Source: an uncultured Desulfomonile sp. (GTDB lineage: Bacteria > Desulfobacterota > Desulfomonilia > Desulfomonilales > Desulfomonilaceae). Taken from it: a stretch of DNA of 64,000 nt. Positions 6,988 to 28,788 of this stretch are shown piece after piece. The notes beneath the pieces are model-generated. The model ran no database searches. It worked only from the letters and a program-made list of their open reading frames with translations, and was not told the origin of the DNA. Positions within the stretch are counted from its first letter, which is position 1. Every line of letters starts with the position of its first letter. The stretch covers positions 22,898 to 86,897 of the forward strand of contig CALGLN010000085.1 of NCBI GenBank assembly GCA_937930835.1. Direction: 5' to 3'. The position numbers were made by a program, and so were the translations under genes.

Positions 6988-8157
6988 TTAGAGTGTCCCA
7001 GAGATAACGATCCTTTGGATCTCGTTTGTGCCTTCGTAAATTTGAGTTATCTTTGCGTCTCGCATCATTCTTTCAACAGGATATTCGGTGCTGTAACCGA
7101 ATCCGCCCAGAACCTGAACTGCCTCTACTGTAGTCCACATTGCAACGTCAGAGCAGTATGCCTTTGACATTGAGGAGTGCCTAATGGTCTCGGGCGGTAT
7201 CTTGGAAAGATCTTTTTGGACTTTATCGAGAAGAGAACAGGTTTTCCACAACAACATACGTGCGGCAGTAATTCGCATCGCCATGTCTGCTAGCTTGAAG
7301 GCGATCGCCTGATGTTTTATGATCGGCTTACCAAACGCGACCCTCTCCTTGGCATACTGAGTAGCATACTCAAAAGCTCCAGCTGCTATTCCTAGGGCCT
7401 GCGCCGCCACAGACGGGCGACTGAAGTCCAGCGTTTTCATCATGATATGGAAACCGGCGCCTTCTCCGGCCAAGAGGTTTTCGGCAGGCACTTCGACATC
7501 CTCAAATATTAGTTCTCTTGTGTCTGAAGATCTTATGCCGAGTTTGCTTTCCTTTTTGCCAATCGTGAAGCCTGGCATTCCCTTTTCGAGTATGAATACG
7601 CTGGCCCCTTTATATGGCGCGACATCGGGATCCGTCACAGCGTAAACACTGAAGGTGTCAGCGATTCCACCGTTGGTTATCCACATCTTCGAGCCATTGA
7701 GTATATACTTGTCGCCTTTTTTGACTGCCCGGGTTTTCAGAGCCGCTACGTCAGAACCACCCTTGGATTCGGTCAAACCGAACGCCGCAGTTGTTTCTCC
7801 GGTTGACAAAGGTTTGAGATATTTTTCTTTCTGCTCATGATTACCCGCTAGGATTATCGGAAGACTACCAAGTTCCTGAACAGAAGGTATAAGAGCTACC
7901 GAAGCATCAGCCTTTGCTAATTCCTCTACCACGATGCAGTGAGCGATCATGCCGGCGGCCATTCCATCATATTCTGCTGGAAAATCAACGCCCATGAGAC
8001 CGTTTTCTCTCATGAGCTCGAGCATGTCGTATGGATATTCCCCCTTTTTATCTCTCTCCTCGGCTGTTGGGGCAACTTTTTCCTTAGCAAGCCTCCTGAC
8101 CATGTCCTGTAGCATCTGTTCTTCTTCGGTCAACGAGAAGCGGTCATTATCTTTCAT
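6988..8157 (-). CDS. Acyl-CoA dehydrogenase (short/medium-chain, butyryl-CoA dehydrogenase-like)
   Basis: 389 aa. Motifs: AFGLTE..GGSD, WITNG, and C-terminal QIYEGTNEIQR. Confidence 0.9.
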   Translation of the reverse strand: MKDNDRFSLTEEEQMLQDMVRRLAKEKVAPTAEERDKKGEYPYDMLELMRENGLMGVDFPAEYDGMAAGMIAHCIVVEELAKADASVALIPSVQELGSLPIILAGNHEQKEKYLKPLSTGETTAAFGLTESKGGSDVAALKTRAVKKGDKYILNGSKMWITNGGIADTFSVYAVTDPDVAPYKGASVFILEKGMPGFTIGKKESKLGIRSSDTRELIFEDVEVPAENLLAGEGAGFHIMMKTLDFSRPSVAAQALGIAAGAFEYATQYAKERVAFGKPIIKHQAIAFKLADMAMRITAARMLLWKTCSLLDKVQKDLSKIPPETIRHSSMSKAYCSDVAMWTTVEAVQVLGGFGYSTEYPVERMMRDAKITQIYEGTNEIQRIVISGTL

Positions 8158-27089: not shown

Positions 27090-27359
27090 TTAAGGTTCAG
27101 TCGTGTGTTGGTTATCCGTGATTCTCACAAATGCGTTTAAGTATCTGGATCGATAGCCGTATCGTTTGAGAAACTGGCTAGTTATATGAGACGTGGTCCC
27201 TGTGATGCAATAGACTACATTTTCTTTATCCACAGTTAGCCTGCAATATTCTTCATGTAGTCTGAAAAATGGAATGTTTAATGCCCCAGGTAACAAACCT
27301 CTGGCAAATTAACTCTCATCCCTGACATCCAAAATGATTTTTCCATCTGAAGTGTGAAG
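27090..27359 (-). pseudogene. Truncated and nonsense-interrupted single-domain rhodanese
   Basis: My translation gives LHTSDGKIILDVRDES-TAA-FARGLLPGALNIPFF...KENVVYCITGTTS. The in-frame TAA (27309-27311) sits where rhodaneses have the Glu of the E-F pair. A TGA (27360-27362) closes the frame just upstream, so the normal N-terminal ~25 aa are missing. The C-terminus lacks the usual GG..W end. Confidence 0.55.
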
Positions 27360-27365
27360 TCATTG

Positions 27366-27392
27366 TGGAGGGTCCTATCAATGGACCCTCCA
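27366..27392 (-). terminator. Stem-loop 14 nt after the stop of the multi-rhodanese gene (possible terminator or 3' stabiliser)
   Basis: Perfect 9-bp stem GGAGGGTCC / GGACCCTCC with a 7-nt loop, extendable by a T-A pair. There is no clear U-tract on either strand. Confidence 0.4.
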
Positions 27393-27405
27393 TGCTCAAA
27401 ATGAC

Positions 27406-28788
27406 CTATTCTTCTAAGGTGTAAGCTCCCTCTTTATCTTTGTCAAAACTCAAGGTGGCACGTAAATAGCCCGCATTGTATCCCGCATTTTTCAATATGG
27501 TGTAGGCCATTTCCGCCCTGGCTCCAGTCGCGCAGTGAACGATAATTCTTTTGTCTTTGGGGACTTCAGAAATCCGTACTTCCAATTCATCAAGTGGAAT
27601 ATTAACTGTGTTTGGAAGTTTACCTTCGTTGACTTCAGCAACATTTCTTACATCAAGAATAATCGTATCAGGAGATGGTTTTTCAAGAAAACCCTTGAAC
27701 ACGGATAGTTCAACTTCGCCTGGAAGTAATTTTCTGACATAGTTAATAGTTGTCGCTGCGGCTTCCGTAGAAACGGTTTTACCCGCTGATTGCCAACCTT
27801 TAAAACCTTTGTCTAGTATACTGACCTGATTGTATCCCCATCCGGCGATAGCGTGAAACGCCTTCTTAGTCTCTTCCGAAACACCATCATCGCCATAAAG
27901 GATTATTGCGGCTCCCTTGAATTTCGGGAATTGATCCTTCAGCGCATCAATGCCGTCTTTCGGTAGCGACACAGCCTTGGGGATGTGTCCTTTAGCAATC
28001 AGATCAGCGGACCTGGTATCAATCAGGATGTATGAAGCGTCCAGTTTGTTATACTCTTCAATAGCTGCGTTGTTTGAAACGACTAAATGTCCAGCTTTTC
28101 TCCAATCAGGTAATCCAGCATGATAAACTTTGACATTCTTGTAGCCTAGTTTTTCCGCCTTCCTGGCGGCTAATGGGCTAAGCACTCAGGAAAATCCAGC
28201 GCAATAATAAATCTGGAGAGTATCTTTGTCCTTGAATAATTTCTCTGCAAGCTTATCAAATGCGAAAAAGGGCATACCAACGGCTGTGGGGATGTGTCCC
28301 TCGTTGTATCGTTCCATCGGACGACTATCAAGGAGGATGTAACTTCCTTTTTCAGGACCTTTGGCGACCAGGTCGGCTAACTGTTCAGCTGTTATGAGCT
28401 GTTCAGCAGGTACCGCAATACCCTTTTTGACCTCGATCTCTTTCGCGTAAGTTTTGCCGTCCTTCTTGGCATAAATTACCTTTACCGATTCCTCTTTGGG
28501 AATTTCCGGAATACTAGGCGCATTCTTGAGAACCGTGGCATCGTCAAAAGTAATGACTTCTAGACCCTTGTCAATCTGAAGCTGAAGGCAATTGGCTTTT
28601 ACCGATGCGCTCTTGAACTTGCCTGCCATCACATTCGATTGCTTGTCATACTCATGACACTTCAAGCAACTCTGATCCGATTTGGCAGGAAGCTTGTCAT
28701 CAGCTACCGCTAATCCGTTGAGCGTCCAAAAAACGCCCACGATCAGAAATGAAAAAGCGCCGATCACGAAAAGTGACCTTTTAGACAT
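27406..28788 (-). CDS. Exported CXXCH + triple-rhodanese protein, probable selenoprotein (Sec encoded by in-frame TGA 28186-28188, residue 201 of 460)
   Basis: ORFs 28186..28788 and 27406..28185 are in the same frame and separated only by TGA. Joined, they read ...DTLQIYYCAGFS-U-VLSPLAARKAEKLGYKNVKVYHAGLPDWRKAG, a single rhodanese domain. GGAG lies 7 nt upstream of ATG 28788. The signal peptide is MSKRSLFVIGAFSFLIVGVFWTLNGLAVA, followed by CLKCH. Domains 2 (ILYGDDG, no Cys) and 3 (IIVHCATGAR) follow. A hairpin lies downstream of the TGA. Confidence 0.6.
28142..28180 (-). promoter_or_regulatory. Candidate bacterial SECIS-like hairpin, starting 5 nt 3' of the in-frame UGA
   Basis: mRNA: UGA GUGCU UAGCC CAU UAG CCGCC AGGAA GGCGG AAAAA CUA GGCUA. 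Three stacked helices (5+3+5 bp) with a CAU bulge, an A5 bulge and a 5-nt apical loop containing GG. Confidence 0.5.

Follow-up and report, generated by a model that had tools for sequence, protein, structure and literature searches.

The hairpin CCGCC-AGGAA-GGCGG, which follows an in-frame UGA in a rhodanese gene of an uncultured Desulfomonile species, is very probably (a probability of about 0.9, judged from sequence comparison) the core, bound by SelB, of a bacterial SECIS (bSECIS) element that directs the insertion of selenocysteine (Sec) at residue 201 of the encoded protein. A SECIS element at this place had been proposed in the initial annotation of the window, the whole stretch of 64,000 nucleotides that was analysed. 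The proposal is supported, since the hairpin agrees with the published model of bacterial SECIS elements, the UGA is found in 47 orthologues, compensatory changes and frozen synonymous sites occur in the Sec forms only, and the genome carries the machinery for Sec. In these comparisons, the apical hairpin shows the marks of selection as an RNA structure only in genes that have UGA at this codon.

Table 1. Positions in the window of the host gene, the recoded codon and the elements of the proposed hairpin.
Feature	Position	Strand	Remarks
Host rhodanese gene	27406..28788	-	460 aa when the UGA is read through
CLKCH, c-type haem-binding-type CXXCH motif	28654..28668	-	invariant in 33/33 family orthologues
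In-frame UGA, read as Sec (residue 201)	28186..28188	-	TGA in 47 distinct orthologues, TGC/TGT in Cys forms
Putative core bSECIS	28155..28169	-	stem CCGCC 28169-28165 / GGCGG 28159-28155, loop AGGAA 28164-28160
5' arm UAGCC of the claimed basal helix	28176..28180	-	ensemble probability ~0.46; optional or unfixed
3' arm GGCUA of the claimed basal helix	28142..28146	-	ensemble probability ~0.46
5' arm UAG of the claimed middle helix	28170..28172	-	partner CUA 28147-28149; unsupported, probability ~0.05

The UGA bridges two open reading frames of translation table 11 that lie in the same frame (28788..28186 and 28185..27406). In the product of readthrough, Pfam finds three rhodanese domains (PF00581, E = 2.8e-44), and the best-matching stretch, residues 139-231, crosses the UGA. 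The first domain holds both Cys196 and Sec201, the latter being five residues past the former, which is the canonical rhodanese cysteine; the second domain contains no Cys, its loop included, while the third features a canonical CxxGxR loop. The active-site loop of the first domain reads YYC-AGFS-U-VLS, where U denotes the UGA codon. The closest solved structure by sequence is 6mxv, an ordinary tandem rhodanese (E = 1.4e-12), and the HMMER alignment of the two points to a loop in the present protein with two residues more than the canonical CxxGxRS. The N-terminus is a hydrophobic, signal-like segment ending in A-x-A, which is kept in all 33 family orthologues. Since both this segment and the CXXCH motif are conserved, an exported protein is suggested, in which a c-type haem is fused to rhodanese domains.

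Just 3' of the host gene, at 27090-27404 of the minus strand, there is a single-domain rhodanese frame with one stop inside it (ILDVRDES*FARG...) and others, also in frame, upstream. Its ORF piece still matches the Pfam Rhodanese model (E = 1.2e-4), and the sequence has the look of a paralogue that has decayed.

When 41 related genomes, counting G000, were searched in six frames, the gene was located in 22, and 20 of these 22 family orthologues have a single TGA at the equivalent codon. Among the 21 matches outside G000, 19 have one TGA, at the Sec201 codon, and two have no TGA, one of them being a relative with 37% identity. With a second collection of loci added, there are 35 distinct orthologues of the Desulfomonilaceae type, comprising 33 TGA forms and 2 Cys forms, and a phylum-wide search with domain 1 found 15 further Sec forms, with identities as low as approximately 43%, in other families. 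The 47 UGA-bearing orthologues used below span several families of the phylum (Desulfomonilaceae, Thermodesulfobacteriota). In a large protein database, all the full-length homologues (approximately 460 aa) have Cys at the position of Sec201; most of the other entries are pieces of 255-260 aa that start after the TGA, mostly a C-terminal fragment of 259 aa. As these pieces begin past the TGA, the gene is generally mis-called.

The same entries bear on the reading that the UGA is a true stop between two genes, of 200 and 259 aa, with the hairpin being incidental or serving in pausing, processing or translational coupling. Gene callers and public databases do treat the 259-aa piece as a protein of its own, and a GTG follows directly after the TGA; however, a stop at this point would split one rhodanese domain, the codon is replaced by Cys in the full-length homologues, TGA is held at this one codon throughout the 47 orthologues, whose domain identity reaches as low as approximately 43%, and the genome encodes the Sec machinery. 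A true stop is consequently extremely improbable.

The machinery itself was found in the genome. SelB (389 bits, full length, on contig C111) and SelA (602 bits) are encoded, selD is present and itself carries one in-frame TGA, and a tRNA-Sec is recognized both by Rfam (70 bits) and by ARAGORN, which calls it tRNA-SeC with the anticodon TCA (UCA). With selA, selB, selD and a tRNA-Sec (UCA), the genome is, as judged by its gene content, Sec-competent. TGA is otherwise an ordinary stop codon, ending 13 of the window's 35 open reading frames with 250 codons or more, and on these grounds an altered code in which TGA is a sense codon throughout was rejected. In the same genome, selD (L067) and four FdhA-like genes (L073-L076) each have one in-frame TGA that is followed by a hairpin. 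The loops of these hairpins are G-rich (AGG, GGC, GGG and GGUCU) and start 16-23 nt past the UGA. The assembly is broken near two of the FdhA-like genes, each of which sits at the end of a contig.

Two further RNA predictions were encountered. The first is on a short contig, C72 (L011:921-1012, minus strand), where a tRNA of 92 nt reaches 56.5 bits with the tRNA-Sec model of Rfam and is called tRNA-Cys, with the anticodon GCA, by ARAGORN; it adjoins a fragment of a SelB-like open reading frame (C72:109-891) that is cut by the contig end. This tRNA was rejected as a reader of UGA since its anticodon is GCA. It resembles the tRNASec-like 'selC*' tRNACys of PMC5389517, a study that uses Desulfomonile genes, and the contig could be a contamination. 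The second is a permuted tmRNA, marked with an asterisk by ARAGORN, at 7019-7403 of the plus strand, with the odd tag peptide AAVIRIAMSASLKAIA. No tmRNA was matched by Rfam at gathering thresholds in the whole window, and the prediction is possibly a false positive.

The initial annotation described the region 3' of the UGA as a composite hairpin of 13 bp in three helices. Its letters and coordinates are exact: the UGA is at 28188-28186 of the minus strand and is followed, in order, by the ten segments GUGCU, UAGCC, CAU, UAG, CCGCC, AGGAA, GGCGG, AAAAA, CUA and GGCUA, which end at 28142. The apical helix CCGCC/GGCGG is part of the minimum-free-energy (MFE) fold in every context tried with RNAfold, with pair probabilities of 0.99-1.0; it begins 16 nt past the UGA, and the loop 21 nt past it. 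The MFE of the 47-nt segment is -15.1 kcal/mol, and the apical helix in its context has -9.5 kcal/mol. The full 13-bp structure has -13.7 kcal/mol. Of the fold that had been expected, the apical helix is thus recovered, while the lower helix of the MFE structure is in a different register from that claimed, namely GCUUAG/CUAGGC (28183-28178 with 28149-28144), with an ensemble probability of approximately 0.54.

On its own, the hairpin of one sequence is suggestive and not decisive. Its fold is not stable beyond chance when compared with dinucleotide shuffles (z = -1.0; 34 of 200 shuffles as good), nor is it significant when the same peptide is recoded with random synonymous codons, 7.6% of the recodings folding as well. 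Of the window's 2,814 TGA triplets, 9.1% precede a hairpin that agrees with the published bSECIS criteria, whose limits on loop, stem and spacing are all permissive, and only 0.36% precede an upper hairpin that is as stable and no shorter than 5 bp. At gathering thresholds Rfam had no match in the whole window, and a permissive Rfam scan of 28050-28260 gave only matches at chance level (E > 1), one to mir-316 and one to a CRISPR repeat. Since the single-sequence fold is not significant, thermodynamics was not relied on, and it is the comparative evidence that decides.

Positions 28155-28169 are encoded by codons 207-212, GCC GCC AGG AAG GCG GAA, which specify Ala Ala Arg Lys Ala Glu. Among 33 family sequences, GCC GCC AGG AAG GCG hardly changes at the nucleotide level, in contrast to third positions nearby, which are free to vary. 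The normalised synonymous entropies of codons 207-211 are 0, 0.22, 0, 0.20 and 0, compared with a gene mean of 0.83, and these codons form the lowest of the 211 five-codon windows in the gene (0.08 vs a mean of 0.83); they also make up five of the seven codons with a synonymous entropy below 0.25. Elsewhere in the gene, the same amino acids use all their codons.

A second and smaller synonymous dip is seen at codons 216-217 (UAC AAG, 28138-28143 of the minus strand), 12 nt past the hairpin. Here TAC is used 21 times and TAT once, and AAG 25 times and AAA once, in a gene where the Tyr and Lys codons are elsewhere used at approximately 1:1. Consensus folds of the region from -60 to +120 nt contain no partner for these two codons.

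Across the 47 Sec forms, the RNAalifold consensus consists of the 5-bp apical helix alone, with no broken pair in 235 cells. The pairs are of the types CG, UG, UA and GC, and the changes that separate them are three compensatory double changes and five single ones. In particular, L097 has CUGCC...GGCAG, a change from C-G to U-A, and L035 has U-A as its closing pair, with U-G intermediates seen in L046 and L047. In L117 the peptide and the stem sequence are largely different, the paired columns are unchanged and the loop starts with G; in a clade where Lys is replaced by Leu, the hairpin is retained with the loop AGGUU. All 47 Sec forms have G at position 2 of the loop (invariant column 32). 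For the apical helix together with its two flanking pairs, each of the five covariation measures is higher than in any of 500 shuffles and in all slid controls. These orthologues are related, and as most Sec forms share an identical hairpin, the covariation rests on few changes. For the apical helix, the expectation that pairing is conserved in orthologues that retain TGA is borne out, all five pairs being kept in all 47.

The Cys forms provide the complementary comparison, for which the DNA of nine Cys-form homologues was used in addition to that of two found earlier. At the same codons, these use GCA, GCU and UCG in the Ala/Ser positions, AGA, CGG, AAG and AAA in the Arg position, and GCC, GCA and GCU for the last Ala. 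Of 20 distinct Cys forms, distant ones included, 4 retain all five pairs, vs 48 of the 48 Sec forms that are distinct. In the Cys forms the loop is mostly AAGAA, AAAAA or AGAAA, with G at loop position 2 in a minority. In a maximum-likelihood tree, the Cys forms stand at many separate positions within Sec clades and are therefore largely independent replicates; ten switches between Sec and Cys are most parsimonious, of which at least eight are forced by well-supported branches. The repeated switches are most simply explained as losses of Sec.

Two of the Cys forms, L079 and L081, come from metagenome assemblies. In L079, whose Cys codon is UGU, the hairpin is kept letter for letter, which is consistent with a recent switch. 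L081 (UGC) keeps the 5-bp stem through a compensatory change from C-G to A-U, and its loop is AAGAA, the GG having been lost. Since three or four Cys forms retain the stem, the stem alone is not strictly tied to Sec; from L079 and L081, it may outlive Sec or have a minor second role.

The conservation of 28155-28169 might also be ascribed to constraint on the protein or on codon usage only, with no relation to recoding. The peptide AARKAE is itself highly conserved and Ala codons are GC-rich by nature, as this explanation would have it. It is nevertheless very improbable, as the constraint acts on synonymous sites and is confined to five codons, the Cys forms L049 and L034 encode AARKAE with other codons, and the changes seen in the Sec forms are compensatory or wobble changes.

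The lower part of the proposed structure fares differently. On the claimed 13-bp structure, counted over 32 orthologues, 100% of the cells of the apical helix are paired, compared with 77.5% for the basal helix, whose terminal pair is present in 5 of 32, and 66.7% for the middle helix, whose first pair survives in 7 of the 32. In the same 32 orthologues, neither the basal nor the middle helix shows covariation, and their pairing is no better than that of shuffles. For the family set, RNAalifold places a lower stem in yet another register (columns 13-18 with 45-50), in which no covariation was found, the combinations CG 13, UG 8, UA 6 and CA 6 being close to independence; for the phylum set of 47 sequences it gives no lower helix. 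The third-position sites of the lower helices vary freely. Of the three-helix anatomy, the 5-bp apical helix is therefore what is conserved, and the basal and middle helices are neither conserved nor covarying.

It could be held that the whole composite hairpin, 28142-28180, is functional and that the lower helices are required. In favour of this, the claimed basal helix is a near-isoenergetic alternative to that in the MFE fold (-13.7 vs -15.1 kcal/mol, with the ensemble probability given in Table 1), and most orthologues are predicted to pair in some way below the apical helix. The register of that pairing, however, differs from one orthologue to another, few sequences keep the terminal pairs, the pairing is at the level of shuffles, the consensus folds either change the register or omit the lower helix, and the third positions involved are free to vary. 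A requirement for the composite is accordingly improbable, if somewhat less so than the two alternatives considered above. As lower pairing is common and its register is not fixed, it is probably dispensable or merely stabilising.

For the preferred reading, a SECIS core confined to the apical hairpin, the following course of events may be envisaged. During translation of the first rhodanese domain, the hairpin would form just 3' of the UGA in the A site. The C-terminal domain of SelB would bind the G-containing apical loop, and SelB.GTP.Sec-tRNA(Sec, UCA) would be delivered to the UGA, so that, presumably, translation would not end there but continue with Sec as residue 201. The Ala-rich codons right after the active-site loop would double as the stem, which, being written in these codons, would make the same bases both codons and RNA structure.

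The gene would in this way be a clean natural example of dual-use coding sequence, with five codons frozen because they are also an RNA signal that recodes the UGA, and the Cys forms amount to a natural experiment, the RNA constraint being absent wherever the codon is Cys. Public annotation splits the gene, and the conserved UGA and hairpin could serve to correct how the family is annotated throughout the phylum. The selenoproteome of the Desulfomonilaceae gains a triple-rhodanese protein with a haem motif, which may bear on periplasmic sulfur and selenium chemistry. Knowledge of how SECIS elements work is unaltered; the type of hairpin is already known, both rhodanese selenoproteins and bSECIS hairpins being well known.

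The hairpin can be compared with the model of bacterial SECIS elements used in bSECISearch (Zhang & Gladyshev 2005, restated in PMC13188914), in which a loop of 3-9 nt is carried on an upper stem of 4-16 bp, at least one G is found in the first two loop positions, usually a G that is followed by G or U, the distance from the UGA to the loop is 16-37 nt, and the MFE is at most -7.5 kcal/mol. The present hairpin lies inside the coding sequence directly 3' of an in-frame UGA, and has a 5-nt loop, a 5-bp stem, a G at loop position 2 that is followed by another G, a spacing of 21 nt and an MFE of -15.1 kcal/mol, all within the model. It also behaves as a bSECIS element would be expected to, in that the structure is kept in UGA orthologues and relaxed in Cys orthologues, in a host that has the Sec machinery. 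The first and last bases of the loop, A and A, are unpaired in this clade, while those of the AGGUU clade can pair.

The SECIS element of Escherichia coli fdhF has a bulged U in its upper stem and a loop of the GGUC type, and its upper stem-loop suffices for function, the lower stem being dispensable. Like it, the rhodanese hairpin is directly 3' of the UGA and places a G-containing loop approximately 20 nt downstream, and the dispensable lower stem of fdhF fits the pattern of conservation described above. Unlike it, the rhodanese hairpin has neither the bulged U nor GGUC, but a perfect stem of 5 bp and the loop AGGAA. A loop of the fdhF kind, GGUCU, is found in two of the FdhA-like genes of the same genome.

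Knowledge of rhodanese-related selenoproteins in the Deltaproteobacteria goes back to the mid-2000s (PMC1976440), and five forms of rhodanese-like selenoproteins have been catalogued, including form 1 (UxxS), form 3 (CxU, NF041203) and form 5, which is TsoB (NF045694, UxxxxU) (PMC13188914). The catalogued proteins and the 460-aa protein have in common that Sec is in or beside the active-site loop. The sequence U-V-L-S, which is in a rhodanese domain of Pfam, fits the motif of form 1 (exemplar WP_010941598.1), a likeness at the level of the motif. The model of form 3, NF041203 (rhodanese_LYCAU), scores 58.9 bits against a cut-off of 115, and that of TsoB, NF045694, 76 bits against a cut-off of 805, so that the protein reaches neither.

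Unlike the catalogued forms, the protein joins a signal-like N-terminal segment and a CXXCH motif to three rhodanese domains. One may speculate, with considerable doubt, that the host is an undescribed periplasmic selenoenzyme in which a c-type haem is wired to a rhodanese domain with an extended active-site loop, whose Cys-x4-Sec pair works as a selenenylsulfide redox centre, and that its minimal, bulge-less SECIS of 5 bp with the loop AGGAA represents a mode of SelB recognition distinct from the fdhF type. If this were true, the selenoenzyme might reduce polysulfide, thiosulfate or selenite, and not merely transfer sulfur. The C-x4-U spacing of the protein is the same as the U-x4-U spacing of TsoB-like genes of the same phylum, and other rhodanese genes of the phylum with C-x4-U or U-x4-U, including TsoB-like genes with two TGA codons, have GC-rich hairpins at the equivalent Ala-rich codons.
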